From an uncultured Muribaculaceae bacterium (lineage in GTDB: Bacteria; Pseudomonadota; Alphaproteobacteria; Rs-D84), in assembly GCA_965231035.1 (NCBI GenBank), contig OZ246409.1, positions 91,101-123,100 on the forward strand: 32,000 nucleotides of DNA. Direction: 5' to 3'. Shown here piece by piece: positions 8,274 to 32,000 of this stretch (its first letter is position 1; each line of letters opens with the position of its first letter). The notes under the pieces were generated by a model. The model did not search any database. It was not told the origin of the DNA and worked only from the letters and a program-made list of their open reading frames with translations. The position numbers and the translations under genes were made by a program.

Positions 8274-10019
8274 ATGTTATTTGGGAAAAAATCTGGTATA
8301 AAAAAGCACAATAATCGTGAACGTTATGATCGTGTCCGCAAGTTGATGTGGATTAAATGCGAATCTTGCGGAAAACTGGTTTATTATAAAGATTACAAAG
8401 ACAATAACTATATCTGCCCACGCTGCAACCATTCCTTTATTATGACACCAAAGCAAAGATTTGACCTGGTGTTTGATAATAATAATTGGGAAAAAATTAA
8501 TCTTCCTATTGTGTCTGATGACCCTTTGAACTTTACAGATCGTATCCCGTACAAGGACAGATTGGTTGAAGCGCGTGCAGAAACTGGTTACCAAGATGCA
8601 ATAACCACCGCAGACGGGGTTATTGGCGGAATTCCAACAACTGTTTGTGTTTTGAATGGTGATTTTATGATGGGTTCTATGGGACGCGCCGCAGGTGATG
8701 GTATTATTGCCAGCATTGAACATGCAATCGAATTAAAACAATCTTTTATCATGGTTACTTGCAGTGGTGGTGCCAGAATGCAAGAAAACATACTTTCGTT
8801 GATGCAAATGGCAAGAACAACCGTTGCTGTGAATAAGTTACATGCGAACAAGCTGCCTTATATTGTATTGCTGACTGATCCAACTTTTGGTGGTGTTACT
8901 GCGTCTTTTGCAATGCTGGGCGATATTCATATTGCCGAAGCTGGCGCCAGAATTGGTTTTGCTGGTCGTCGTGTAATTGAACAAAATATTCGCGAAAAGT
9001 TGCCTTCGAACTTCCAAACTGCCGATTATTTGTATGAACATGGTATGGTTGACATGGTTGTCAACAGAACGGAATTAAAATCAAAATTGGAAAAGATTTT
9101 GGCTGTGCTGACCAAGCGGGAAAAAGAACCTAAAAACATAAATGTTAAAACGCCTATTGCGGATCATTCTAAGAAAGTCCGTGGATTGGGCGAATCTGAG
9201 GCCTATGATAAAGTATTATTGGCACGTAATGAAAATCGCCCACACTTCTTGGATTATATTGAAGGTATCGTAGAAGATTGGACATATTTGGCAGGTGACA
9301 GATTATATGCCGAAGATCCTGCGATGTGCAGTGGTATTGGTTTTTGGCGTGGTATTCCAGCTGTAATATTCGGTCAGGAAAAAGGAAGAACTATTGAAAG
9401 CCGTCAAAAACACAGATTTGGTATGCCAAATCCAGACGGCTATCGCAAGGCTCAACGAATGATGAGATTGGCGGAAAAGTTTGAATTACCTGCGATTTCG
9501 TTATTCGACACTGCTGGTGCTTTTGCTGGTCGCGAAGGCGAAGAACGCGGACAATCCGAAGCAGTTGCAAGCTCTATTGCCACAGGCTTATCTATCAAAA
9601 CCCCTTATATAGCCGTAAACGTGGGTGAGGGTGGTTCTGGCGGCGCAATCGCAATCGGAACTGGAAATCGTGTTTTGATGCTGGAAAATGCAATTTATTC
9701 AGTTATTGCACCTGAATCTTGTGCATCTATTTTATGGAGAGATAATAAGTTCAAAGCAGTTGCTGCAACAGCTATGAAATTGACCGCTCGTGATATGTCT
9801 GAAATGAATGTGGTTGATGAAATTATCACAGAACCCGCAGGTGGTGCACATAATGACTGGCAAACAACTATGGAAATGTTAAGTACCACAGTTGCAAAAC
9901 ATATCCAAGAATTACAAAAAATCCCAACCAATGAATTGCCTGCACAACGTGCTGCTAAGTTCATCGCAATGACCAGGGATGTAGAAATATATAAACCCGA
10001 ACAAAAAGAAGAACTTTGA
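8274..10019 (+). CDS. accDA: acetyl-CoA carboxylase carboxyltransferase, fused beta (AccD) and alpha (AccA) subunits (581 aa)
   Basis: The N-terminal half has the AccD Zn ribbon CESCGKLVYYKDYKDNNYICPRCNH and SGGARMQE...LTDPTFGGVTASFAMLGD. The C-terminal half has AccA motifs: FGMPNPDGYRKAQRMMRLAEKFELPAISLFDTAGAFAGREGEERGQSEAVA and GEGGSGGA. Confidence 0.92.
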   Translation: MLFGKKSGIKKHNNRERYDRVRKLMWIKCESCGKLVYYKDYKDNNYICPRCNHSFIMTPKQRFDLVFDNNNWEKINLPIVSDDPLNFTDRIPYKDRLVEARAETGYQDAITTADGVIGGIPTTVCVLNGDFMMGSMGRAAGDGIIASIEHAIELKQSFIMVTCSGGARMQENILSLMQMARTTVAVNKLHANKLPYIVLLTDPTFGGVTASFAMLGDIHIAEAGARIGFAGRRVIEQNIREKLPSNFQTADYLYEHGMVDMVVNRTELKSKLEKILAVLTKREKEPKNINVKTPIADHSKKVRGLGESEAYDKVLLARNENRPHFLDYIEGIVEDWTYLAGDRLYAEDPAMCSGIGFWRGIPAVIFGQEKGRTIESRQKHRFGMPNPDGYRKAQRMMRLAEKFELPAISLFDTAGAFAGREGEERGQSEAVASSIATGLSIKTPYIAVNVGEGGSGGAIAIGTGNRVLMLENAIYSVIAPESCASILWRDNKFKAVAATAMKLTARDMSEMNVVDEIITEPAGGAHNDWQTTMEMLSTTVAKHIQELQKIPTNELPAQRAAKFIAMTRDVEIYKPEQKEEL

Positions 10020-19334: not shown

Positions 19335-21262
19335 TAAATATTTCCATTAAGAATCGTGTAAACCTGGCCCAGGTCGGTTTTCAATAATGTCTCTATCAGC
19401 ATATCTTTGTTATCTGCCTGTTCTGCGCCAGTCATTATTTTATTAAATGCACGAATAAACTGTGTCGCTTGGGAACGGAAAACAGCATCAGATTTTAACA
19501 GATCTCGAATTTGTTTTTTTTCTGCCGCTGCCAACATCCTTGCCAACCATTTTGAAAATATTGTTTTATCCCCAGCATGATATTTCTTTAACACAGCATC
19601 TGGAATTTCCGCACCAATACTACGTGTCAAATCCATTGATTGTTCATGAAGTTTTTCAACCATTTTTTCGCTTTGTTTTATGAAATCTTGGCTGCTGATT
19701 TTTGCAAATGTTTGTGCAGGTGCTGCCTTGATTGCTTCCATTGGGGCAGTAGCACGTGCAACCATCATTTGTTTATTTAATGTCTGCAATGTGGTCACAG
19801 CCTTGGCATAGTCGGACATTAAATCTATCATTTGCTGGCGTGATTGACCCGACAAGTTTTCAAGTTTTAAAGAAGATTCAGAAATTCCATCAATAGATTC
19901 AGCAGCTGTTTGTTTCAGAATATCAATTTTTTCATTCATTGTAGCAACTATGGTTTCCAGATTCTGAGCCATTTCAACCGATCCTTCGGATAATTCGGGC
20001 AGGGCTTTGTAATATTTTTCTATCAGTTCCGACAAAGGTTGTAATTGAGCAGTTGTATCATTTGACATCTTTATTAAATTGGCAGATTGGCTGGAAAGCT
20101 GAGTATGTGCCGTATTCATTTCCATCAATGTCTCGCGTACGCCAATTGCCATCGCACGAACAGAGTCTGAAAATGCACCAGCAGCCGATCGTGTATTTTC
20201 CAAAGTCGTATTTGCCACGCCGGAAACAGTATTTAACTCACCAACTACACCTGTTGCGAATTCACGGATTTCACCATTGAATCTGTTAGTCAAAGTTGCA
20301 AGTTCGGTTGATACATTTCGAACCGAAGACTCTGTTGTAGATGCCGAAGACATCAGATTTTCAACCGCATCCGCCAGTTTTTTGACCTGTTTTTCAATTG
20401 AAGATTCTGCTAAACGGATTTGACCCCCAACAACATTTGCGGTATTGCTTAACGAATTCATCTGGTTTGTTAATAATGTCTTGGACTGTTTTGTAAATGC
20501 ATCTAATTTTTCAAGTTGTGATCCTAATAATTTATCATTATTTTCCATCAATTTTTCATAGTCTGCTGCTGATGTTTTAACTTTATCAAATCCTTCGGAT
20601 GTTGAATTTGATAAATCTGTTAATTTTTGTTGTATTATTCCAGATTCTTCGGTCATTGCACGAATCTGAGAAACATTGCCATCAATCTCGGCTTTTAATT
20701 GTTCCGACATTTTTTTACCAGAAGAAATCCAACCATCAATATGATTCTGCAAGGTTGAAGTCTTATCAATTGTATCCTGGGAAACTGTATCAATTTTATT
20801 TAATAACCCATTGATACGATTTGTAAAGTTTTCAGCCGAGTTTTCAACATTTTTCCATCCATTTGAATCAACAATGCCTTTTAATCCGGTTACAGTGTTG
20901 TCTAAACGTTGGGACATCACTGCTATCTTTTTTGCAGCTTCTTCTGCCAACCCAACTAATTTTTCATTGTGACCAGACAGCTCATTCTTCAATTCCTGTG
21001 CAGAAGATATTTGTGACATCAAAGTATCCTGCATCGTCTTAAAACCAGTATGAATTTTATTAATTTCATCCGCCAGAATTATTTGTAACACACGTGAAGC
21101 ATCTTGAACTTTGGCACGTTCTGGACGTGTCATCAAAAGCAGTAAAGATTCCATAACTTTTTGTGATCGTTTAGACACTGAAAATAGAAAAATCATTGCA
21201 ATTATAAATAAAAATCCCAAAACTCCGCTGGCGATTAAAAATATATCTGTTGTTTCCATCAT
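19334..21262 (-). CDS. membrane-anchored long coiled-coil protein (about 642 aa)
   Basis: GGGAGA SD before ATGATG at 21262. One N-terminal TM helix (IFLIASGVLGFLFIIAMIFLFSV). About 600 aa of Q/E/K/L/S/T-rich helical sequence follows. The ORF track begins at 21280. Confidence 0.7.
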   Translation of the reverse strand: MMETTDIFLIASGVLGFLFIIAMIFLFSVSKRSQKVMESLLLLMTRPERAKVQDASRVLQIILADEINKIHTGFKTMQDTLMSQISSAQELKNELSGHNEKLVGLAEEAAKKIAVMSQRLDNTVTGLKGIVDSNGWKNVENSAENFTNRINGLLNKIDTVSQDTIDKTSTLQNHIDGWISSGKKMSEQLKAEIDGNVSQIRAMTEESGIIQQKLTDLSNSTSEGFDKVKTSAADYEKLMENNDKLLGSQLEKLDAFTKQSKTLLTNQMNSLSNTANVVGGQIRLAESSIEKQVKKLADAVENLMSSASTTESSVRNVSTELATLTNRFNGEIREFATGVVGELNTVSGVANTTLENTRSAAGAFSDSVRAMAIGVRETLMEMNTAHTQLSSQSANLIKMSNDTTAQLQPLSELIEKYYKALPELSEGSVEMAQNLETIVATMNEKIDILKQTAAESIDGISESSLKLENLSGQSRQQMIDLMSDYAKAVTTLQTLNKQMMVARATAPMEAIKAAPAQTFAKISSQDFIKQSEKMVEKLHEQSMDLTRSIGAEIPDAVLKKYHAGDKTIFSKWLARMLAAAEKKQIRDLLKSDAVFRSQATQFIRAFNKIMTGAEQADNKDMLIETLLKTDLGQVYTILNGNI

Positions 21263-21284
21263 ATTCTCCCATAAACACATATTG

Positions 21285-21313
21285 TTGCACTTTGTAAAAA
21301 TTTATACTAAAAT
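21285..21313 (+). promoter_or_regulatory. promoter candidate for addA
   Basis: TTGCAC (21285-21290), 17 nt, TAAAAT (21308-21313). An AAGGG SD precedes ATG 21337. Confidence 0.45.
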
Positions 21314-21336
21314 ATCATAAATAAAGCAAGGGCATA

Positions 21337-22938
21337 ATGGCAAAAAGACAGACACTTTCACCAGAACAAAATCAAGCTGCGAATCCAATTGAAAACATTT
21401 GGGTCCAAGCAAACGCAGGTACTGGAAAAACAAGCGTTTTGGTTCAACGTCTGTTGCGAATTTTATTCAGATCAGATAATCAGTTACATCGAAATCATAA
21501 ACCAAATGGCATATTGTGTTTGACATATACAAACGCGGGTGCCAGTGAAATGCGAAATAGGATTTTGTCTGCTTTGCGTGATTGGGCAACCGCTGACGAT
21601 AAAAGGCTTTATGAATTACTTGATGGCGTATCTGAAAAAAAAGATCCTGATAAATATGATTTAGAACATGCCAGAAATATTTTTTATGAATATATTGATA
21701 ATCCAGACATATTAAAGATAAAAACAATACATGGATTTTGTGAAGAGGTACTTCGCAGGTTTCCGATCGAGGCTGGGATTTCACCTGCGTGGAATTTGAT
21801 ATCTGATTCAAATCAAAAAATAATGCTTACGGATGCTTTTCATAAATTAATAAACTCTCCGATTACAAAAAATAGTAATTCTGATGATGAAAGCATAAGA
21901 ATAAATGATGCCTTTTCTCGCATAGTGGAAAGGGTATCCGAGCAGTCTTTTGATGAACTTTTGGGCATTTTAACCAGTCAGTACAAACAATTCTTCAAGG
22001 TGACTGATATTTATAGTTATAGGAAATACTTCATTGATAATATTAAATATTTTCTTGATATCAATCCACCAATTATAATAGAAGAATCAACCGAAAAACT
22101 GAAAAAAATTATAGAATTGGTTGAAAATGAGGTAAAATCATCGAAAAAGCCGGCAGGATACCTCACTGAAGTTATTAATTTAACAAAACAGTATATTGAT
22201 AAAACTATAAATTTTGAAAAATATAAAGAGGCGTATTTGACGGCTTCCGATACCAAGATTGCAAACGTCGCCAAAAAAGATTTTTTGATTGAAGAACAAG
22301 GTAGAGTCTATAAACTGAATCAAAAACACCTGGACGAACAGATATATGCGGATACAATCGCATTATTTGACCTGTCAGCAGCTTTTACAAAGACGTATAA
22401 AGAGTTAAAAGCCGAAAGAAATGCCTTGGATTTTGATGATTTGATACTTTACACCAGAAAATTATTTTCAAAACCAGATGTAATGGGTTGGATTCTGTCA
22501 CAACTTGATATGTCACTTAGTCATATACTTGTGGACGAGGCCCAAGACACCAGTCCTGAGCAGTGGGAAATACTTCGCATGCTGTCTGGTGATTTTTTTA
22601 CAGATGGTGACATCGATAAAAACACACATTCCTTGTTTGTTGTTGGAGATACCAAGCAATCTATATATGGCTTCCAGGGTGCAGATCCATTGGCTTTTGC
22701 CAGCAGTCGTGATGAAATTGCAAATCAAATCAAAAACAATTTACGATCAATAACAGAAGTTCCATTAACTCAAAGTTTTCGTTCAACTGCAGCAATACTA
22801 AGGACTGTAGATTATTTCTTTGGAAATTCAGATATAAAAAGCATTTCTGGATTTGTAAACAACGATCATAAATGCTTCAGACAAGATTCATGTGGTGTCG
22901 TAGAATTGCACTCTTTGTCTTCAAAAGAATCGAATTGA
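21337..22938 (+). CDS. addA: double-strand break repair helicase AddA, N-terminal fragment (UvrD-type domains 1A/1B); the gene is split
   Basis: Walker A NAGTGKTSVL, ILCLTYTNAGASEMRNR, VDEAQDTSPEQW, VGDTKQSIYGFQGA, LTQSFRS. The ORF stops at 22938 where AddA normally continues. Confidence 0.85.
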   Translation: MAKRQTLSPEQNQAANPIENIWVQANAGTGKTSVLVQRLLRILFRSDNQLHRNHKPNGILCLTYTNAGASEMRNRILSALRDWATADDKRLYELLDGVSEKKDPDKYDLEHARNIFYEYIDNPDILKIKTIHGFCEEVLRRFPIEAGISPAWNLISDSNQKIMLTDAFHKLINSPITKNSNSDDESIRINDAFSRIVERVSEQSFDELLGILTSQYKQFFKVTDIYSYRKYFIDNIKYFLDINPPIIIEESTEKLKKIIELVENEVKSSKKPAGYLTEVINLTKQYIDKTINFEKYKEAYLTASDTKIANVAKKDFLIEEQGRVYKLNQKHLDEQIYADTIALFDLSAAFTKTYKELKAERNALDFDDLILYTRKLFSKPDVMGWILSQLDMSLSHILVDEAQDTSPEQWEILRMLSGDFFTDGDIDKNTHSLFVVGDTKQSIYGFQGADPLAFASSRDEIANQIKNNLRSITEVPLTQSFRSTAAILRTVDYFFGNSDIKSISGFVNNDHKCFRQDSCGVVELHSLSSKESN

Positions 22939-23317
22939 TACAAATTTAAAACATTCCAAATTATATGATTCGTTTTTGGTCATTTTAAATATAAAAAAAA
23001 CATGCTTTTAAACACTTAAATACAATCACATTCGGCAATTAATACTGGTATAACATTACTTGCATTTAATTGTAATATGCAGATTTATTGAAATATTTGA
23101 TGTATAAATCAATCAGATAATATACCTTTATAAAACAATGATGTTTTTTTTATAATTTTCATATTTTCTTCAAAATTTAATGAAATTTTGTTAAAAATAA
23201 CCTGTGTAAAAAATTGATTTTATAAAATATTTTTTGCATAAAATACTTTTACAATGAAAAATCATATGATATCATTAATAGTGAATTGAAATTTTATATT
23301 CATGAAAATATTTTTTT

Positions 23318-24448
23318 ATGAAACAAAATAAAAAATATATGAAAGATGAAAATTTGAAAACTTTATCAGAAAAAAAATCTGCTGCGAAAGCTCGTAAGGA
23401 ATACTTATGTAATATCGCTGATAAAATTCAATCTTTGATTTCTGAAAAAACATTCCAAGCAAATGAAATTATGGTTCTGGTTCAACGCAGAAACCCTTTT
23501 GCAGGTCCATTAGTCAAAGAATTAAAGTCTCGTGACATAGAAGTAGCCGGAAATGACCGCATTATTTTGCCAGAATTTCCAGCAATCCGTGATTTGCTGA
23601 ATCTAGTAAGGTTTTGTATTGATAAAACGGATAATTACAGTTTATGTTGCACTTTGAAAAGTCCGATTTATCATCTGAAAGAACAAGATATTTATAATCT
23701 TTGTAAAATCAAAACTGATTTGCAAAAAGATGTATCAGTCTTTGATGTTTTGGGAAAAAATTACCCTGAAATATATTCCGAGCTTTCAAACATTATTGAA
23801 TGGTCAAAAACTTTGGCACCATATTCGTTTTTTATGCGTGTTTTGAACACAAATAATAATCGCGAAAAAATGATAGCTGCACTTGGTACACAAATTATTG
23901 ATCCCTTGGAAGAATTTTTAACTATTTGTTTGGCATACGAAAGAACTAAACCTGGAACACTTCGTCATTTTATAAAATGGTTTATAACCGGTGGCAGTGA
24001 AATCAAACGCGACATGGATGCCAGCAGTGGCGTCAGAATAGTAACCGTTCACGGCAGCAAAGGTTTAGAAGCCCCAGCAGTATTCTTAATAGACACAATC
24101 GCAACACCAAAGCAGGATAGGGTTTTGGAGCTTTCACAAATTAACACAAATCATAAAAACAATGATATTGATGCTCAGAAGCTGACTGCATGGTTATGGT
24201 CACCACAAAAAAGTAATAACGAAAAATTAGAATCTGTTGCAGAAATAAATATGAATAAGAAAATTGCCGAGTATTATCGCTTGCTGTACGTAGCAATGAC
24301 ACGTGCACGTGACAGACTTTATATTTATGGTTTTACATCTAATAAAAATCCACCTGAAATTGCATGGCATACTCAATTAATAAATGTTTTATCTGATATA
24401 CCAGGTGCAAAATCTGAAAAAGATGTCATAGAAATAACAAATGTGTAA
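23318..24448 (+). CDS. addA: AddA, central fragment (helicase domains 2A/2B)
   Basis: IMVLVQRRNPF...LKSRDIEVAGNDRIIL, VRIVTVHGSKGLEAPAVFL, LLYVAMTRARDRLYIYG (UvrD motifs IV-VI). No SD before ATG 23318. Confidence 0.8.
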   Translation: MKQNKKYMKDENLKTLSEKKSAAKARKEYLCNIADKIQSLISEKTFQANEIMVLVQRRNPFAGPLVKELKSRDIEVAGNDRIILPEFPAIRDLLNLVRFCIDKTDNYSLCCTLKSPIYHLKEQDIYNLCKIKTDLQKDVSVFDVLGKNYPEIYSELSNIIEWSKTLAPYSFFMRVLNTNNNREKMIAALGTQIIDPLEEFLTICLAYERTKPGTLRHFIKWFITGGSEIKRDMDASSGVRIVTVHGSKGLEAPAVFLIDTIATPKQDRVLELSQINTNHKNNDIDAQKLTAWLWSPQKSNNEKLESVAEINMNKKIAEYYRLLYVAMTRARDRLYIYGFTSNKNPPEIAWHTQLINVLSDIPGAKSEKDVIEITNV

Positions 24449-24887
24449 AAATATTCTTGAAATTTTATCAAAAAGGACTAGCCAACAGTTTGCAACTGAG
24501 GTTGGTACAGAAACGCATAAGAAAATGCAAAAAATTGTTATTGATGGTGATTTAATTATTGGAAATAATACATTGATACAACAAATAAAATTAAAAAAAG
24601 AACTGTTGCAATTTTTTACAAAGAGTTCCCAAACAGAAGTGCCTTTGGCGGGTGTAATAAACGGTAAATTCATCAGTCGCCGCATAGACAGATTGATAAA
24701 AGATGATGAAACAAAACATATATTATTTTTAGATTACAAAACTGACACAAACAAAAATTTATTTCGCGAAAAATACATCGCACAGATGAAAGACTACAAA
24801 GAATTGCTTAAAAAAATATACCCTAGTTATTCTGTACATGGATTAATTTTATGGTTGCAAGATTTTACAACCGAAGAAATTTGTTGA
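24441..24887 (+). CDS. addA: AddA, C-terminal RecB-type PD-(D/E)XK nuclease fragment, frameshifted relative to the central fragment
   Basis: GTETHKKMQ, RRIDRL and FLDYKTD nuclease motifs, and Q..DY (KYIAQMKDYKELL). It overlaps the previous ORF by 8 nt in another frame. Confidence 0.8.
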   Translation: MCKNILEILSKRTSQQFATEVGTETHKKMQKIVIDGDLIIGNNTLIQQIKLKKELLQFFTKSSQTEVPLAGVINGKFISRRIDRLIKDDETKHILFLDYKTDTNKNLFREKYIAQMKDYKELLKKIYPSYSVHGLILWLQDFTTEEIC

Positions 24888-24899
24888 CTCTAAAACCCC

Positions 24900-24929
24900 T
24901 TGAAATATGTTTAATTATTTGTCTATAAT
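24900..24929 (+). promoter_or_regulatory. promoter abutting the recN start (predicted leaderless)
   Basis: TTGAAA (24900-24905), 18 nt, TATAAT (24924-24929), 6 nt, ATG 24936. No SD. Confidence 0.5.
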
Positions 24930-24935
24930 TTGACT

Positions 24936-26591
24936 ATGTTAACCGGTCTTAATATATCAAACATTGTATTAATCGAAAAGCTGAATCTGGAATTCGGTCG
25001 TGGCTTAAACGTATTAACTGGCGAAACCGGTGCAGGTAAAAGTATATTGCTGGATGCGCTGTCTTTGGCTTTGGGCGCACGATCAGACACTGGGCTTATT
25101 CGTCATGGTTGTGACAATTCACAAGTAATCGCAGAGTTTGACAGCATCAATGAAGAACTGAAATCAATACTGGATGAAAATGGAATTGATTTTGATGGGA
25201 CATTGATACTGCGCAGGACACTTGGTACAGATGGAAAAAGCCGTGCTTGGGTTAATGATGTTCCTGTATCAATTAAAACATTAAAACAGGTTGGTGATTT
25301 ACTGGTTGAAATTCATGGACAGTTTGAAAATCATTCCTTGCTGGACCCAACAACACATCGTAAGACTTTGGACGAATTCGCTGGGAACAAAAATATAAAA
25401 TATTTGGGCCTGATTAACGATGTTAAAAAATCTTTTTCCGAATTTTATCTGGCTGAAACTAAACTGATAGAATTAGAAAAATTATTAGAAAAATCAGCAG
25501 CTGAACGCGAATTCTTAGAGCATAATGTTAAGGAATTAAAATCATTAAATCCACAAATTGGCGAAGAAGAAACACTTGCCAATCGGCGTGCGATTTTAAT
25601 GAATGCTGAAAAGAATGCTGCTATTTTATCCGATGCTGTTTCTGAATTAAATCCAAACGGTCATGGTTTAGAATCAATGATTTTTGCAGTCGCACATACT
25701 TTAGAAAAAATTAAACTGGATCCAAATCCATATCAAAAGCAAATAGACAGATTGTATGATGCTGCAAATGGTATTGCAGAAGTTTCTGATGAATTAAAAC
25801 CAACCGATTCTGACACAGAAAATCTGGAAGAAATTGAAGAACGTTTATTCGCAATTCGTGCCGCCGCACGCAAACATCGTGTTTCTGCTGATGAACTGGC
25901 TGCCAAGCTGATTGAAATGTCAGAACAACTGAACCAAATTGATAATTCAGATGCAGAACTGAAAAAATTGAAAACTGATGTAAAAAGTAAAAAATCAGAA
26001 TTTGATTCGTTTGCAAATAAATTAACATCTGAACGCAAATCCGCAAGTGAACTTTTACGCAAAAAAATACTTGCTGAATTACCAGACTTGAAGCTTGGTC
26101 AGGCAGACTTTATGGTTGAACTAAAAGATTCCGCGCCGTCGTCATATGGTATGGATGAAATAACATTTTTGATAAAGACAAATCCGGGAACACCATTTGC
26201 GCCTTTGCATAAAATTGCCAGTGGTGGTGAATTGGCACGATTGATGTTGGCACTGCGGGTTGTTTTTGGAAATGGAAATTACAGCGGGCACACTTTTGTT
26301 TTTGACGAGGTTGATACCGGTATCAGCGGTGCCACTGCCAGCGCCGTTGGTGAGCGTTTAGCACGTCTGGCAGCCGAGGCTCAATCACTGGTTGTTACTC
26401 ACAGTGCCCAAGTTTCTGGATTTGCCGATAAGCATTTCAAAATTGAAAAGAACAGTAACAAAGATTCAACAATTACAATTGTAAAAGAAGTTAAAGGTGA
26501 CGACAGAATCAATGAAATCGCCAGAATAATCAGTGGTTCCAAGATTACACCTGAATCAATCGCATCTGCAAAGACATTAATCAAAAAATAA
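24936..26591 (+). CDS. recN: DNA repair protein RecN
   Basis: MLTGLNISNIVLIEKLNLEFGRGLNVLTGETGAGKSILLDAL (Walker A), a long coiled-coil middle, ASGGELARLMLAL (signature) and FVFDEVDTGISG (Walker B). The ORF track starts at TTG 24930. Confidence 0.93.
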   Translation: MLTGLNISNIVLIEKLNLEFGRGLNVLTGETGAGKSILLDALSLALGARSDTGLIRHGCDNSQVIAEFDSINEELKSILDENGIDFDGTLILRRTLGTDGKSRAWVNDVPVSIKTLKQVGDLLVEIHGQFENHSLLDPTTHRKTLDEFAGNKNIKYLGLINDVKKSFSEFYLAETKLIELEKLLEKSAAEREFLEHNVKELKSLNPQIGEEETLANRRAILMNAEKNAAILSDAVSELNPNGHGLESMIFAVAHTLEKIKLDPNPYQKQIDRLYDAANGIAEVSDELKPTDSDTENLEEIEERLFAIRAAARKHRVSADELAAKLIEMSEQLNQIDNSDAELKKLKTDVKSKKSEFDSFANKLTSERKSASELLRKKILAELPDLKLGQADFMVELKDSAPSSYGMDEITFLIKTNPGTPFAPLHKIASGGELARLMLALRVVFGNGNYSGHTFVFDEVDTGISGATASAVGERLARLAAEAQSLVVTHSAQVSGFADKHFKIEKNSNKDSTITIVKEVKGDDRINEIARIISGSKITPESIASAKTLIKK

Positions 26592-26592
26592 T

Positions 26593-27828
26593 CTAAACTT
26601 TTACCACACCATCACTAAATTCTATTTCAGCAGGAATTGCAAAATCGGCGGCGTGCGAGATTATTTTATTTTGATGGCGAACAATTGCATATCCCCGCGA
26701 CAAAACATTTTTATAAGACAACGAATTTAACATTTGATCCAGATGATTTATTACCTGATTCAAACTGGTCATTCTGTTTTTTAAAATGTTTGGAAAATTT
26801 GAAATTGCTTGTATCTGTTGCTTGGTGCTTGCAATTTTTCCATTTACAATTATACCCATTGTCCTGGTTAAATCATCCAATCTTTGTGCGTGTTCCATAA
26901 TTAACTGTTTTGGATTTTTAACATTGATTGATTCAATTTTGTGTTTAGTGTTTATCAATCTGTTTGCAAAGTTTCCATTCAGTCTGTGCGATAAGTTATC
27001 AATTTCTTGAATCAGCGAAAGTTTTGTTGGTACAACAATTTCCGCCGCCATAGTAGGTGTCGCAGCACGTACATCCGCCGCAAAGTCAATCAGCATCCAA
27101 TCTGGTTCATGACCAACACCAGATACCAAAGGAATTTCACTGGCGGCGGCAGCACGAACAACAATTTCTTCTGAGAACGGAAGCAAATCTTCCAAAGAAC
27201 CACCACCACGTGCAACTATTATTACATCAACATTTTTCATACGATTAAAATATTCAATACCTGCTACAACTTCTGCCGCGGCAGTTGCCCCTTGGACCGT
27301 TGCAGGATAAAATAATACATGCACTGGGAAACGTTCACGTAATCTGTTTTGAATATCCTGAAAGGCTGCACCAGTCGGGCTGGTAACAATTCCTATTGTT
27401 TGTGGAAAACGTGGTAAAGGTTTCTTGCGCGCAGAATCAAACAATCCCAACGCCGCCAATTTCTTTTTGCGTTCTTCCAGCATTTTTAAAATTGCACCAA
27501 CACCTGCCATTTCAATTTCAGATGCAATTAATTGATAATTGCTGCGCGCAGGATAGGTAGTGAATTTACCGGTTATTATAACCTCTAGACCTTCTTCCAA
27601 TTTAAAGGACAACGGTGTTCCACGCCAAACAATTACCGAAATGGCGGCACCAGAATCTTTTATCGTCATATAAACATGACCCGAAGAAGCACGCGTGATT
27701 TGTGACAATTCGCCACGAATTTTAATAATTGGAAAAGCAGTTTCAACCACACCCTTTAACAGTGCAGACGCATCAGATACACTGAAAATAGTGTCCGGTT
27801 TTACAAAAGGTTCTGGTTTTTGAATCAT
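26593..27828 (-). CDS. xseA: exodeoxyribonuclease VII large subunit
   Basis: N-terminal OB fold (IKIRGELSQITRASSGHVYMTIKD), IGIVTSPTGAAFQDI and ARGGGSLEDLLPFSEE motifs, and a helical C-terminus. Confidence 0.93.
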   Translation of the reverse strand: MIQKPEPFVKPDTIFSVSDASALLKGVVETAFPIIKIRGELSQITRASSGHVYMTIKDSGAAISVIVWRGTPLSFKLEEGLEVIITGKFTTYPARSNYQLIASEIEMAGVGAILKMLEERKKKLAALGLFDSARKKPLPRFPQTIGIVTSPTGAAFQDIQNRLRERFPVHVLFYPATVQGATAAAEVVAGIEYFNRMKNVDVIIVARGGGSLEDLLPFSEEIVVRAAAASEIPLVSGVGHEPDWMLIDFAADVRAATPTMAAEIVVPTKLSLIQEIDNLSHRLNGNFANRLINTKHKIESINVKNPKQLIMEHAQRLDDLTRTMGIIVNGKIASTKQQIQAISNFPNILKNRMTSLNQVINHLDQMLNSLSYKNVLSRGYAIVRHQNKIISHAADFAIPAEIEFSDGVVKV

Positions 27829-27834
27829 GGTTGA

Positions 27835-27862
27835 ATTTTATCAATAAAACAAAATAATGCAA
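27835..27862 (-). promoter_or_regulatory. promoter abutting the xseA start (predicted leaderless)
   Basis: On the minus strand: TTGCAT (27862-27857), 16 nt, TGa-TAAAAT (27840-27835), 6 nt, ATG 27828. No SD. Confidence 0.45.
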
Positions 27863-27885
27863 ACACTGTTTTTATATGATAAAAT
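27857..27885 (+). promoter_or_regulatory. promoter abutting the kinase-like gene start (predicted leaderless); its -35 overlaps the xseA -35
   Basis: ATGCAA (27857-27862), 17 nt, TGa-TAAAAT (27880-27885), 6 nt, ATG 27892. No SD. Confidence 0.45.
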
Positions 27886-27891
27886 ATATCC

Positions 27892-28809
27892 ATGAATTAT
27901 GATTTAAGTAACTTAAAAGTTCTTAGCACCGTTGGGACAAGCGGGGTGATTGTTTACGAATACGAAGATGATAAAGTTATATTATATCTTCCAGGTAACC
28001 AAGATGTTGAATCTTGGTTATTAGGTCAAATTTTGGCACAAAATATAACTAATCAGCTAATTGATATCAAAAATAAGACTTATTCTGTTCCTAAAATCCT
28101 TAAAATCTTAAAATCTGACAGAATTATTATTGAATCTCGTCTGTTCGGAGAACCTTTAACAAAAAAATTATTTTGTTCTCTGGATGAATCTGATAAATAT
28201 ATCGTACAAAAAGGTATTGCAAACCTTATCAATGATATGAACCAAATGAGACCTGTTAAGGAACCAAAGTATTTACTTAATAATGCAGGTTTTTCATTTG
28301 AAGACATTTTAAAAAAATTATCTGAAATATTACCAAATAAAACAATAAAACATATAGAAAACGCCTACAAAAAATTTATACAATTAAACGGTTCAAGTAT
28401 CGTTTTTTCTCACACAGATTTGTATAATAACAATATACTTTGGAATTCAAAGACTAAAACTGTTGGAATATTAGATTTCGCAGAAAGTGATTTCAAAAAT
28501 ATAAATGAAATAATTGAAAAACTATCTGATTTTGATTCAAATAAAATACTGGATATTTATACTAATTTACCAAAAAATCAGCCTGTTTATTTTGAACAAA
28601 ATAAAACATTTACTAACTTATTTAAAATGCTTCGAGATTTTTATTTGGTTGCAAATGCTTACTTTAAAAATCAGAATTCAGGCCTACTAAAAACTCTTTT
28701 AAACAACACTGGAAATTTATCAAATTACCTTAATATAACAAAAGGTTCAGAAATATTAAAAAAATCTTTTAATTCTACTCCCGTAATAGAACAAAGCAAT
28801 CAATACTAA
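27892..28809 (+). CDS. phosphotransferase family protein (APH/choline-kinase-like small-molecule kinase) (305 aa)
   Basis: Brenner motif FSHTDLYNNNILW (HxDxxxxN) followed by GILDFAES (DFG-like). Very low GC. Confidence 0.75.
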   Translation: MNYDLSNLKVLSTVGTSGVIVYEYEDDKVILYLPGNQDVESWLLGQILAQNITNQLIDIKNKTYSVPKILKILKSDRIIIESRLFGEPLTKKLFCSLDESDKYIVQKGIANLINDMNQMRPVKEPKYLLNNAGFSFEDILKKLSEILPNKTIKHIENAYKKFIQLNGSSIVFSHTDLYNNNILWNSKTKTVGILDFAESDFKNINEIIEKLSDFDSNKILDIYTNLPKNQPVYFEQNKTFTNLFKMLRDFYLVANAYFKNQNSGLLKTLLNNTGNLSNYLNITKGSEILKKSFNSTPVIEQSNQY

Positions 28810-28814
28810 ATAAA

Positions 28815-29049
28815 TTATTCTCTATAATTATTAACCAAAGAATTTCTTATAACAATTTTTTCTAAATCATGTTTATCGTTACCAACCAAAGACTTGATAA
28901 TAAACATTCGGATCTTTGAAGGATTCACGTAATTTTTCAACAATGTATGGAAATGATAATCTACCACGGATATTAACTTCATAATCAGTTGCCAGTTTGG
29001 CAAGTTTTTTTGTTCCTATATTAAATAGTTCTTCTCTTTCTGATATCAT
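28815..29049 (-). pseudogene. truncated/frameshifted paralog of the 29102..29557 gene
   Basis: A 56-codon ORF from ATG 29049 encodes ...LAKLATDYEVNIRGRLSFPYIVEKLRESFKDPNVYYQVFGW. This aligns with LVLLAEDYEIPQIGKYSLPEIVSALRESFKNPETHKKVFGNF of the upstream gene. The reading frame then breaks. Confidence 0.5.
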
Positions 29050-29101
29050 ATTATGATTGTATCAAAATATAGAAAAAATTCAAGTTTTTAACAAAACACA
29101 A

Positions 29102-29557
29102 TTATTCCAACCCTGCACATTTACCCAAAATAATAGCCTGGTGTTTTAAACGTCTTGTCCAATCTGAATCCGTATTAATTCTATTTTCTATTGATGCACT
29201 TCGATATTGAAAAGGTTTTGAAAATTGAGTACGAGTTATATCAAAAGGTCCACTTATAATCAAATGTTCTAACCACCAATGAGATGATCCTTTAATAAGT
29301 TTCCATTGTTTAGAACCTCCTGTTTTAAGGCTTATATAAAAATGACTTATTAAACAAAAATCATCAGAAAAATCGTATTGTTCTTCTAGAAAATTGCCGA
29401 ATACTTTTTTGTGTGTTTCTGGATTTTTGAAAGATTCACGCAAAGCGCTGACTATTTCTGGAAGTGAATATTTACCAATCTGTGGAATTTCATAATCCTC
29501 TGCCAGAAGAACCAATTCTCTTGTTGCTTTATCATAAGATTCTAGTTTATTGAGCAT
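29102..29557 (-). CDS. hypothetical protein (151 aa from ATG 29557), unknown family
   Basis: The ORF is tracked to 29668, but its first 37 codons are an out-of-frame tsaD 3' remnant. ATG 29557 aligns with the paralog's start, and TACAAT lies 6 nt upstream. Confidence 0.55.
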   Translation of the reverse strand: MLNKLESYDKATRELVLLAEDYEIPQIGKYSLPEIVSALRESFKNPETHKKVFGNFLEEQYDFSDDFCLISHFYISLKTGGSKQWKLIKGSSHWWLEHLIISGPFDITRTQFSKPFQYRSASIENRINTDSDWTRRLKHQAIILGKCAGLE

Positions 29558-29583
29558 GTGTATATTGTATAAAAAATTCCATT

Positions 29584-29720
29584 CTATAATTCTGTCAATG
29601 GCCAGCGGGGATGGGGGTAATCGGTTCGGTAACAAATTTACCCGCCAGGTGTTTTCCAGTCCAGGCAATCATAACACTTTTTTAGCAGTATTAAGATCTA
29701 GTAAATGGCCGTATAAATAT
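29584..29720 (-). pseudogene. decayed duplicate of the tsaD 3' end
   Basis: 29584-29672 aligns with 30588-30681 at roughly 80% identity by hand alignment. There are a 5-nt and a 1-nt indel, and the stop changes from TAA to TAG. Weaker similarity continues to about 29720 or beyond. Confidence 0.7.
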
Positions 29721-30563
29721 TCTTTTCAACATGCGAAGAATATACTTTTTTGTTCCACCTTTATTTATAGACAATCTTTTGCATGTCTTATAATCTTTTC
29801 GCATGCTACGAATTAATCTTCTAAATCTTCGAATACTACGGTGTCCAAGAATCATATACATAGGCAATTTTTTGCGGTATACAACAAAATTTATAATATC
29901 TTTAGCAGCCACATTTATATCACCTTGAAATTCCTGAGCCAAGTACCTTTTTACAGCTTCTTCTTTGTTTACATTTGGATTTTCCAAAGAATTCTTACGC
30001 ATATTTGACGCGAATTTTCCTGGATTAACACTCATTGTGCGAACTTGGCAATGTTTTGTACTTTTGATTGCCTGGGTTAGTCCATTCACAGCATGTTTTG
30101 ACATACCATACAGAATTACATCCCATCCTGTATCTAATCCACTCATAGAAGATAAATTTACAATTGCACTGTTGTTGTTATCTGGAATATATGGCAATGC
30201 TTCCTTGGTCATATTAATAATTCCAATTATATTTGTTTCAAACAACAATCGCATTTTATCTTGTTCTAAATTATTTATTGTCGTAAGATAGTTTATCCCC
30301 GCATTATTTATCAATACATCTATCTTGCCAAATTTAGAGACTGCAGATTTTATAGCCTTTTGTATAGAATCTAAATTAGTTATATCCAATTCCAAACATA
30401 AAATGTTTTCGCTGTTTCCCAGATAATTCAGAGTATTTACATCGCGTGCGGTGGCAACCAGATTAAATCCAAGTTTTGCAACGTATTCAGCCATGCTTTT
30501 CCCAAAGCCAGAAGAACATCCTGTTATCAAAAATACTGCGTCATTACTTATATATTTTCTCAT
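29691..30563 (-). CDS. short-chain dehydrogenase/reductase (SDR) family oxidoreductase (290 aa); the C-terminal tail runs into the tsaD remnant
   Basis: TGCSSGFGKS (TGxxxGxG), NNAG, S...YGMSKHAV (YxxxK). AAAGGTGA SD 24 nt after the tsaD stop. Confidence 0.85.
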   Translation of the reverse strand: MRKYISNDAVFLITGCSSGFGKSMAEYVAKLGFNLVATARDVNTLNYLGNSENILCLELDITNLDSIQKAIKSAVSKFGKIDVLINNAGINYLTTINNLEQDKMRLLFETNIIGIINMTKEALPYIPDNNNSAIVNLSSMSGLDTGWDVILYGMSKHAVNGLTQAIKSTKHCQVRTMSVNPGKFASNMRKNSLENPNVNKEEAVKRYLAQEFQGDINVAAKDIINFVVYRKKLPMYMILGHRSIRRFRRLIRSMRKDYKTCKRLSINKGGTKKYILRMLKRIFIRPFTRS

Positions 30564-30587
30564 ATTTTCACCTTTTGTATTTTAATT

Positions 30588-31658
30588 TTATAATTCTGTT
30601 AATGGCCAGCGGGGACGAGGAGTAATTGGTTCGGCAACAACTTTACCAACCAAATAGTTTTCCAGTCCAGCCCAGGCAATCATTGCACCATTATCAGTAC
30701 ATAGATTCAATGGTGGGGCAGCAAACTGCATATTATTCTCGACCGCCATTTTTTCCAACGCCGAACGGATTGCTGAATTTTTTGCAACACCACCTGCAAC
30801 TACCAATGTTTTTGGTGCTATATTAATTATACGTTTATCATGCATGGCATTATTTAAACGATTAGTTATGCAATCAACCACAGATGCCTGAAAAGACGCA
30901 CAGAAATCATTTATAAATTCTTCACTGTGTGGCTCTGGATGTTTTGCCAACATTGTTCTGGCAGATGTTTTAATTCCAGAAAATGAAAAATCACATCCGG
31001 GTTTATCACAAAGTGGTCTGGGAAAATTAAACGCACGCGGATTACCAATCTGTGCACGCTTGTCTACAACAGGCCCACCAGGATATTCCAACCCCAACAT
31101 TTTTGCGACTTTATCAAAAGCTTCACCAGCACTGTCATCAATGGTTTGACCAATCAATTCATATTTACCAACACCATTAACCAACAAAATCATTGTGTGT
31201 CCACCACTGGCCAAAACCAACAGGTAAGGGAAATCTACACTGATTGATTTTTGATTTGTATCACTGGCAGATGCACCTCGCAGACGCGGAACCAATGCGT
31301 GCCCCTCCAGATGATTCACCGCGACCAATGGTTTTCCTGTGGATTGTGCAATACCAACCGCAGCCATCCAACCAACCAGAACTCCACCAATTAACCCAGG
31401 TCCAGCCGTTGCAGCAATCACATCAATATCATTAATTGTTTTGCCAGCATCATTCAACGTTTTATTTATAACCTCATCAATTGCTAAAATATGCGCGCGC
31501 GCGGCCAGTTCAGGGACCACACCACCGTATTTCTGGTGTTCAGGGATCTGAGAATAAATAATGTGCGACAAGATATTACGATCAGAATCAACAATCGCGG
31601 CAGATGTTTCATCGCAGCTGGATTCAATGCCCAAACAAAGAATTTTTTTATCTGTCAT
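30588..31658 (-). CDS. tsaD: tRNA N6-adenosine threonylcarbamoyltransferase TsaD
   Basis: ILCLGIESSCDETSAAIV, VNHLEGHAL and LLVLASGGHT motifs, and CTDNGAMIAWAG. Full length at 356 aa. Confidence 0.95.
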   Translation of the reverse strand: MTDKKILCLGIESSCDETSAAIVDSDRNILSHIIYSQIPEHQKYGGVVPELAARAHILAIDEVINKTLNDAGKTINDIDVIAATAGPGLIGGVLVGWMAAVGIAQSTGKPLVAVNHLEGHALVPRLRGASASDTNQKSISVDFPYLLVLASGGHTMILLVNGVGKYELIGQTIDDSAGEAFDKVAKMLGLEYPGGPVVDKRAQIGNPRAFNFPRPLCDKPGCDFSFSGIKTSARTMLAKHPEPHSEEFINDFCASFQASVVDCITNRLNNAMHDKRIINIAPKTLVVAGGVAKNSAIRSALEKMAVENNMQFAAPPLNLCTDNGAMIAWAGLENYLVGKVVAEPITPRPRWPLTEL

Positions 31659-32000
31659 TTTTTATCTCGAAAAAAGCAACCCCAATATTTGATTTGCTTT
31701 GTTTTTGTTTTTCTATGTAATCCTTAAAATTAATATCAACAACCTTTTTTTGTTTTGTTGATGCATGTCTTAGTATTCCACCAGGTAATAAAAATCCCAT
31801 ATGCGATACAGCCAAGTCCGTACCTGCCTCCTTAACCATATTTTTATTATTCATTACAAATAATATTATTAATGGCTTTTTTAGATTGATATCTTTTAAA
31901 TTTTCGTATGGTATATATTCAATCTGAACATTTACTTTTTTAAATCTAGTATCCAAATTGTGAACTTTTTTAAACCAACTTTTCTTGTCCAAAATTTCTT
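31648..32000 (-). CDS. papain-fold (DUF1460 or NlpC/P60-like) cell-wall hydrolase-like protein, 3' part; continues beyond the window edge
   Basis: LAVSHMGFLLPGGILRHASTKQKKVVDINFKDYI resembles the H-x-G...HAS core of these families. The frame is open to position 32000. It overlaps the tsaD start by 11 nt. Confidence 0.4.
   Translation of the reverse strand, partial: EILDKKSWFKKVHNLDTRFKKVNVQIEYIPYENLKDINLKKPLIILFVMNNKNMVKEAGTDLAVSHMGFLLPGGILRHASTKQKKVVDINFKDYIEKQKQSKSNIGVAFFEIKNDR

Follow-up and report, generated by a model that had tools for sequence, protein, structure and literature searches.

The DNA analyzed here, referred to below as the window, is a stretch of 32,000 nt from contig OZ246409.1 (positions 91,101 to 123,100 of the forward strand; assembly GCA_965231035.1) of an uncultured bacterium deposited as Muribaculaceae and placed in the GTDB lineage Bacteria; Pseudomonadota; Alphaproteobacteria; Rs-D84. 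It concerns the 3' end of the tsaD gene, where a short-chain dehydrogenase/reductase (SDR) gene separates tsaD from a second, decayed copy of its own last codons. Read in the direction of tsaD (minus strand), the order in the window is tsaD, the SDR gene, the tsaD remnant, the open reading frame (ORF) orf151, a second promoter with orf56, a reverse choline-kinase-like gene and then xseA. The tsaD gene (30588..31658, minus strand) is intact and 356 aa long, and its predicted product is TsaD, the tRNA t6A37 threonylcarbamoyltransferase, as indicated by a full-length PF00814 match (1-264/264, E 1.9e-88) and a C-terminus (...PRPRWPLTEL) conserved in all relatives. The SDR gene (29691..30563, minus strand, 290 aa) starts 24 nt after the tsaD stop codon, as an earlier note based on the letters of this DNA had reported, and ends 18 nt before the remnant. 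Its product is predicted to be a classical short-chain dehydrogenase/reductase from an adh_short domain (PF00106, E 7e-43 over residues 10-195) and from the strings ITGCSSGFGK and YGMSK, matching the TGxxxGxG cofactor and YxxxK catalytic motifs. Homologues of this protein are generally 270-290 aa long, and its best NCBIfam matches, which are generic, fall short of the cut-offs of their models.

The last 96 nt of tsaD (30683..30588, minus strand, ATGATTGCC...TTATAA; tail A) recur about 1 kb downstream in the same orientation, at 29672..29584 (tail B). This repeat was the central observation of the earlier note and was confirmed by local alignment of the Smith-Waterman type with the shuffled controls it had proposed, the score being 106 against 21.0±2.7 (maximum 33) for 500 dinucleotide-preserving shuffles. 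Identity is 76/87 aligned bases (87%), with a longest identical run of 15 nt, and an independent repeat search also picked up pieces of the repeat (D1, D8, D18). The functional tail A has a core of 96 nt including the TAA stop (30588-30683) and the decaying tail B one of 89 nt (29584-29672); both may extend by a few nucleotides at each end (30688..30585 and 29677..29581, minus strand). Tail B carries three deletions of 5, 1 and 1 nt, a stop changed from TAA to TAG and two changes at residues conserved in the relatives, V->F and an R->H in the PRPRW string that is invariant there. The altered stop had been read correctly in the earlier note, which had counted only two indels (5 and 1 nt). Its suggestion that weaker similarity runs on to ~29720 and beyond was not borne out: upstream of the repeat, extension tests by anchored alignment over 12-60 nt gave p=0.03-0.44, and a 300-nt local alignment and a three-frame protein comparison were at chance level. 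Further copies of the tail, a search that had likewise been recommended, were found neither in the window nor at the LicD locus of this genome, nor, at E≤0.01, in 28 related tsaD loci, leaving the remnant unique to the window genome among about 30 loci.

Among the relatives, the tsaD protein matches metagenome-assembled genomes of gut and rumen Alphaproteobacteria, several of them labelled Candidatus Enterousia, a genus of the order Rs-D84 whose genomes measure about 0.75-1.0 Mb (PMC12306168). In all of the 25 close genome relatives xseA follows tsaD in the same direction, at a distance of 13 nt to about 1.1 kb, and in none of them is the SDR gene present. In the four closest metagenomic relatives (86-88% aa identity), a 152/153-aa ORF or else a reverse ORF separates tsaD from xseA. 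In the genome that we call the sister, whose tsaD is 90.7% identical to that of the window at the nucleotide level (P0242; loci L095-L097), the locus reads tsaD-orf161-xseA, with neither SDR nor remnant. With the sister included, about 30 relatives have an SDR-free empty site in which tsaD is followed by 0–2 small ORFs and then by xseA; this comparison, also proposed in the earlier note, supports the view that the SDR gene is an insertion relative to the empty site. The conserved right-hand flank in the window is xseA itself (26593..27828, minus strand; PF02601, E 1e-85).

The SDR gene has another home. Its closest homologue, P0001 (91% aa and 90% nt identity), lies in a Stealth-SDR-LicD-cytidylyltransferase cluster of the sister genome, with no tsaD and no mobility gene nearby, and the dN/dS of 0.09 between the two indicates that the window SDR remains under purifying selection. 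Divergence reaches 15% in the first ~200 nt of the SDR gene. The SDR homologues at 91%, 61% and 50% identity all stand beside a LicD (PF04991) and a CTP_transf_like (PF01467) gene. Sequences of this SDR type with more than 61% identity number only two in a collection of ~15 billion proteins; a JGI metagenome scan with the SDR protein gave none above 61%, and exact-protein look-ups of the window SDR and of orf151 in a contig index found neither on record. The sister tsaD and the sister SDR cluster come from the same two samples (ERZ15185479, ERR4682331), and the species complex is carried by these and by SRR5007244 and ERZ795026. The window genome has a Stealth-LicD-CTP_transf cluster of its own, colinear with that of the sister at 93-94% identity, in which 140 nt stand where the sister has 1055 nt with the SDR; the sequencing run that gave this cluster (SRR5007244) also gave a contig 100% identical to the window. 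The presence of the SDR gene at tsaD together with its absence from its own cluster means that a single-copy pathway gene has changed place. It is the clade's own gene of a LicD/cytidylyltransferase glycan pathway, relocated in the window genome, the pathway being a LicD phospho-alcohol/phosphocholine surface-glycan pathway as assigned from Pfam and NCBIfam domains alone. The window SDR resembles LicD/cytidylyltransferase/reductase phosphocholine clusters in that its nearest homologues adjoin LicD and CTP_transf_like genes, and Stealth as well in the closest, but differs in being unlinked from them, behind tsaD. The earlier note had seen tsaD as the apparent insertion site of a metabolic cassette, a framing that implies a mobile element and is not supported; the insert is one gene with its short leader and belongs to the clade's own LicD pathway.

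The edges of the insert could be placed with the sister cluster contig (L082), which matches the window by blastn at 90% over 874 nt from position 30588. The SDR leader (30564..30587, minus strand) carries a Shine-Dalgarno sequence (AAAAGGTG) and resembles the Stealth 3' end and ribosome-binding region preceding the SDR in the sister, and the insert consists of the SDR gene and this ~24-nt leader only. On the other side, the homology to L082 ends at about 29705-29716. The right junction zone (29673..29704, minus strand) comprises the final 4 codons and the stop of the SDR gene together with an 18-nt spacer. The right joint lies somewhere in 29705..29673, where 18-32 nt match neither source significantly. 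The end of the SDR reading frame had earlier been taken to run into the remnant (GGTKKYILRMLKRIFI compared with GGVAKNSAIRSALEKM of tsaD); the tail in question (…INKGGTKKYIIRMWKRVLRPF…; ...INKGGTKKYILRMLKRIFIRPF...) is, however, conserved in P0001, which stands between Stealth and LicD genes and has no tsaD in its vicinity. A simple cut-and-paste of the SDR gene was considered and rejected, the left boundary of the deletion in the cluster and the left end of the segment at the tsaD locus differing by about 15 nt.

Divergence between the window and the sister is unevenly distributed along tsaD. It is 3.2% at positions 1-158 of the gene, 16.6% at 159-363, 3.6% at 364-749, where the last 125 nt are without a difference, and 14.9% at 750-1071, a block that reaches the stop codon. 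This 3' block (30588..30909, minus strand) holds 48 differences in 322 nt with a synonymous divergence (dS) of 0.78, against a dS of 0.12 in the low-divergence blocks, and a maximum chi-square analysis placed a breakpoint at position 749 (permutation p=0.004). The block abuts the SDR insert and extends 226 nt beyond the repeat. The earlier note had advised comparing the last ~280 nt of tsaD with the rest of the gene; they do differ, over a somewhat longer tract than it had supposed. A closer donor for the block was sought by block-wise identity among 120 tsaD homologues, and none beats the sister. The outgroups are equally distant from both genomes and cannot tell which of the two is the recombinant in the 3' block, which leaves the remnant as the only usable witness.

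That witness points to tail B as the native end. The remnant and the sequence that follows it (TAG-AATGGAATTTTTTA...TACAAT...ATG-orf151) are colinear with the tsaD-stop/promoter/orf152 junction of the relatives, and the stretch 29558..29583 (minus strand) looks like the remains of the native tsaD-to-orf15x intergenic promoter, being colinear with TAG-AATTGAATTTTTTA...TACAAT...ATG of L088, L087 and L092. About 10 nt of its spacer have been lost and no promoter-like site was scored there. The gene behind it, orf151 (29102..29557, minus strand), is an intact member of a hypervariable family of small proteins, as a rule encoded right behind tsaD, with 60% aa identity to orf152 of L092 and 42-43% to the proteins of L087 and L088, and has no Pfam or NCBIfam match. 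The earlier note had begun this ORF at 29668 (188 aa), which is only a mechanical start; the real gene begins at the ATG at 29557, as in the homologues. The synonymous divergence from the sister's tail is 0.21 for tail B (3.5 of 19 sites) and 0.65 for tail A (10 of 23), with 0.32 between the two tails, and the low value of tail B would be unlikely at the rate of the 3' block, with a probability of about 0.004-0.015 by our own binomial estimate. Tail B and the sister also have in common a derived Ala codon (GCG, in LAGK); the corresponding codon of tail A and of the close outgroups is one for Val. Thus, tail B has the behavior of a resident allele, and the functional 3' end that of imported sequence, in keeping with the claim of the earlier note that incoming DNA brought a replacement 3' end and displaced the native one. 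Since the inferred imported tract is longer than the repeat, the data favor a left end that entered by homologous recombination and a right end that was joined illegitimately, rather than site-specific integration.

On these grounds we infer the following donor structure, order of events and direction of exchange. DNA of a related lineage would have carried the 3' end of tsaD, at least 322 nt of it, with the SDR gene immediately behind. At its left end it would have entered by homologous recombination within the resident tsaD, crossing over at some point from window position 31034 to 30910, and at its right end, just past the SDR stop, it would have been joined illegitimately to the resident tsaD, 96 nt before the stop codon. 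The complete incoming tsaD 3' end would have kept the essential gene intact, while the resident last 96 nt, with the native promoter region and orf151, would have been pushed downstream, later to suffer three deletions and two damaging substitutions. The net outcome would be the relocation of the SDR gene. With somewhat better than even confidence, then, we read the 89-nt copy as the displaced and decaying resident tsaD 3' end left by non-site-specific recombination, that is, by homology-facilitated illegitimate recombination with the geometry of a C-terminal displacement.

Several points weigh against this reading. The donor haplotype that it supposes, in which the SDR gene comes directly after tsaD with no remnant behind it, did not turn up in 185,579 species genomes searched through their tsaD loci, nor in a 5.8-billion-protein search or the JGI metagenome scan. 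Between the window genome and its sister, blocks of high divergence are frequent, and the one beside the insert may be a coincidence or part of the sister's history. The raw differences between the tails are nearly equal (11 between A and B, 13 between A and the sister, 10 between B and the sister), the allele comparisons being made over 89-96 nt. The sister's downstream orf161 differs in type from orf151 (26% aa identity), so that the resident context is not simply shared. A mirror-image event, with xseA as the homologous anchor and the left end of the incoming DNA lying 96 nt inside tsaD, is structurally equivalent. Finally, the placing of separate contigs in one genome rests on their co-occurrence in the same samples.

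A serious rival, though one that we hold to be rather doubtful, is that the SDR gene was copied within the genome by template switching. Synthesis during replication or repair would have departed from the end of tsaD, switched by microhomology to the Stealth-SDR-LicD cluster of the same genome to copy the SDR, and resumed ~100 nt upstream of its point of departure, so that a target duplication of ~100 nt flanks the SDR; the original SDR would later have been deleted, and the tails would then have diverged. Such a course agrees with an insert limited to a single gene and the ~24 nt that natively precede it, with the loss of the SDR from its home cluster and with the short strings CAGAATT and AAAAT common to the tsaD end and the Stealth end at the left junction. 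Among distant relatives, moreover, tails A and B are each other's nearest sequences, and the Thr codon in ITP is found only in A, B and the sister. The divergence of the two tails is harder to reconcile with it. They differ by 12.6% and three indels, and their dS of 0.32 is about 2.6 times that of the clonal frame (0.12), though the sister lacks the insertion. Polarized by the sister and the closest outgroups, about 7 of the 11 differences fall on the selected copy A, whereas a neutral copy B would be expected to change faster, and tail B is closer to the sister's tail than tail A is. The boundaries also disagree, the deletion in the cluster starting ~8 nt before the SDR ATG and the copied left end lying ~22-25 nt before it.

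Integrative elements whose targets are the 3' ends of genes (tRNA, tmRNA and some protein genes) bring a substitute for that end within their attP. An island with the tsaD 3' end in its attP could have integrated site-specifically into tsaD and later lost everything but the SDR gene, which we regard as improbable. The direct repeat of a gene's 3' end bracketing an insert, with the target left intact and an empty site in the relatives, is the classic signature of such elements. The insert here, however, is 0.9 kb long and its cargo is one chromosomal pathway gene, with no integrase or recognizable element; when 27 ORFs of the window were scanned with Pfam, no integrase, recombinase or transposase domain turned up, a few of the ORFs having no match at all. 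The closest SDR homologue sits in a chromosomal glycan cluster without a tsaD-like flank or a mobility gene, and another copy of the repeat was found neither in the window, nor at the LicD locus of this genome, nor, at E≤0.01, in the 28 related tsaD loci. An att-type identical core is lacking, as the 15-nt run is the longest within an 87% match, and the replaced tract reaches 226 nt upstream of the repeat, which is not expected from site-specific recombination.

That tail B is a maintained functional element (a regulatory RNA, a terminator or a promoter module), or that two strains were assembled into a chimera here, is very unlikely: the remnant does lie in the 133-nt gap before orf151, where the relatives have a promoter, and the source is a metagenome-assembled genome, but tail B is unique among about 30 loci and has frameshifts and lost conserved residues, an Rfam search of 28500-31000 gave one chance-level miRNA match only, a promoter and terminator scan gave counts at shuffle level with no such site inside the remnant, next to which the native promoter has lost about 10 nt of its spacer, and the exact runs shared by the tails (≤15 nt) are too short to mislead an assembler. 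The same low probability applies to a conserved functional repeat, the possibility that the earlier note had set against its own interpretation. An assembly artefact is unlikely on other counts as well. The three genes stand in consecutive order in the NCBI annotation (HNY25279-81), 5 contigs are on record for each of their proteins (NCBI, JGI, ENA, Logan), and the one contig among these that was compared at the DNA level (L001) is 100% identical to the window over 11.4 kb.

The preferred reading, recombination anchored in tsaD on one side and joined illegitimately on the other, has precedents. In homology-facilitated illegitimate recombination (HFIR) one end of the incoming DNA is anchored by homology and the other is joined illegitimately (PMC5361080; for conjugation in E. 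coli, PMC3240628), the work of de Vries & Wackernagel 2002, Prudhomme et al. 2002 and Meier & Wackernagel 2003 being cited to this effect in PMC5361080. The tsaD locus resembles HFIR in its homologous tract on one side only, the 322-nt block in tsaD, with no extended homology apparent at the other junction, in the addition of foreign DNA and in its small overall size of about 1.2 kb. The insert is where a tract of donor-type divergence ends (14.9% and dS 0.78, against 3.6% and dS 0.12), though such blocks are common in this genome pair, and the displaced 3' end is still joined to its resident downstream context of degenerate promoter and orf151. The differences are that the event is read here from comparative sequence instead of being observed, with an unsampled donor, and that the incoming homologous segment runs on past the point in tsaD at which the illegitimate joint was made, the resident piece surviving in consequence as a direct repeat and not being deleted.

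C-terminal displacement with orphan arrays has been described at the loci of rhs, contact-dependent inhibition (CDI) and type VI secretion system (T6SS) effectors (Kirchberger et al. 2017, PMC5361080, where Jackson et al. 2009 is cited on C-terminal displacement). As at these loci, the incoming DNA would have given tsaD a new 3' end and a downstream gene while the old 3' end and its gene were kept distally, and successive modules stack, here the SDR, tail B with orf151, and a promoter with the orf56 fragment. Unlike them, the displaced gene is an essential and conserved housekeeping gene, both tails encode the same sequence with no polymorphic toxin domain, and no toxin-immunity logic is evident at tsaD.

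Tail B and the SDR gene would together be a recombination scar of an already known kind, ordinary but instructive, with no new mechanism or function. What deserves notice is the reciprocal relocation of a pathway gene and the use of an essential gene in a reduced genome as the site. The locus offers a clean and datable case in which gene order changed without the help of mobile elements, in a genome that is very small and recombines heavily. The essential gene would have survived the insertion because the incoming DNA brought its own copy of the gene end, and the scar left behind lets the event be reconstructed, with a single-copy pathway gene ending up far from its operon. More tentatively, the tsaD 3' end and the small promoter behind it may serve as a recurrent recombination anchor at which modules are stacked by one-sided homologous recombination in these ~0.9-Mb genomes; this is a possibility we would put well short of even. 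If true, C-terminal displacement would also act on an essential housekeeping gene, and pathway genes could leave their operons without a mobile element.

The tsaD-xseA interval holds a third module behind orf151, consisting of an intergenic promoter and orf56 (28857..29091, minus strand, with orf56 at 28879-29049) and 84% identical to L088 at the nucleotide level. The match to L088 covers the tsaD stop, the intergenic region and the first 63 codons of orf153, and the promoter reads TTGAAT-16-TACAAT with an upstream TG, its -35 element at 29083 and its -10 element ending at 29056. This promoter with a truncated second orf15x would indicate repeated additive events at the locus. The orf56 region (28857-29049) looks like a pseudogene fragment of an L088-type orf153, in which a 4-nt duplication (TGGT) shifts the frame after ...QVFG; its homology stops about 20 codons past the frameshift, beside the reverse choline-kinase-like gene. 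The latter (27892..28809, plus strand) is a low-GC accessory gene (23-29%) of the choline/ethanolamine-kinase type (PF01633, E 4e-7) with homologues of ~30% aa identity at the same locus in L004, L009 and L016, and together with LicD elsewhere in the genome it hints at a phosphocholine-type surface decoration. The GC content of the interval is 23-30%, against 38-46% in tsaD. The stacked modules and the low GC mark the stretch between tsaD and xseA as a hypervariable accessory locus of Candidatus Enterousia-like bacteria, at which lineages exchange surface-decoration genes and a fast-evolving family of small proteins.

The small ORFs that come right after tsaD in many relatives belong to a fast-evolving family with 26-60% aa identity between types, and a sigma-70-like promoter is conserved before each, right after the tsaD stop. 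Members of ~150-160 aa are found at 28857-29557 of the window, L087:3630-4394, L088:1486-1947, L092:6105-6563 and L095:7099-7584, with no Pfam or NCBIfam match. Their promoters follow the form TTGAAT-16/17-TAnAAT, two types sometimes stand in tandem, and the diversification is striking. At L087:4090-4180 a string (GATAGAATTATAATTTGAATTTTT) downstream of orf152 and before a second orf15x paralogue is like the last tsaD codons plus promoter. It may be another, shorter displaced tail, its ~16 nt of tsaD-end-like sequence being too short to count.

Mosaic divergence is not confined to the 3' end of tsaD. The second high-divergence block of the gene (window 31296-31500, positions 159-363) has a dS of 1.27 and 2 non-synonymous changes, and its position between segments of ~3% suggests an independent import by recombination. 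Over 11 kb (window 20588-32000 and beyond) the divergence between L001 and L095 alternates between 0-3% and 12-22% per 100 nt, the rplS-side flank being 97-100% identical and xseA ~13% divergent, which implies that homologous exchange with divergent relatives is very frequent in these reduced genomes. On the 5' side, an AmiA-like gene (PF07313; window 31648-32000, continuing past the window at L001:1952-2668) overlaps the tsaD start by 11 nt. It is not at this position in the sister (L095) or in L092, so that the 5' side of tsaD is variable too.

Two other features of the window were recorded. A UvrD-type helicase is split into an N-terminal ORF of 533 aa (21337-22938) and a C-terminal ORF of 376 aa (23318-24448) with a gap of ~380 nt, and the sister genome likewise has a separate UvrD C-terminal ORF of 380 aa. 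At 8274-10019, one ORF of 581 aa combines an AccD-type zinc ribbon and carboxyltransferase domains with an AccA domain, and appears to encode a fused acetyl-CoA carboxylase carboxyltransferase.

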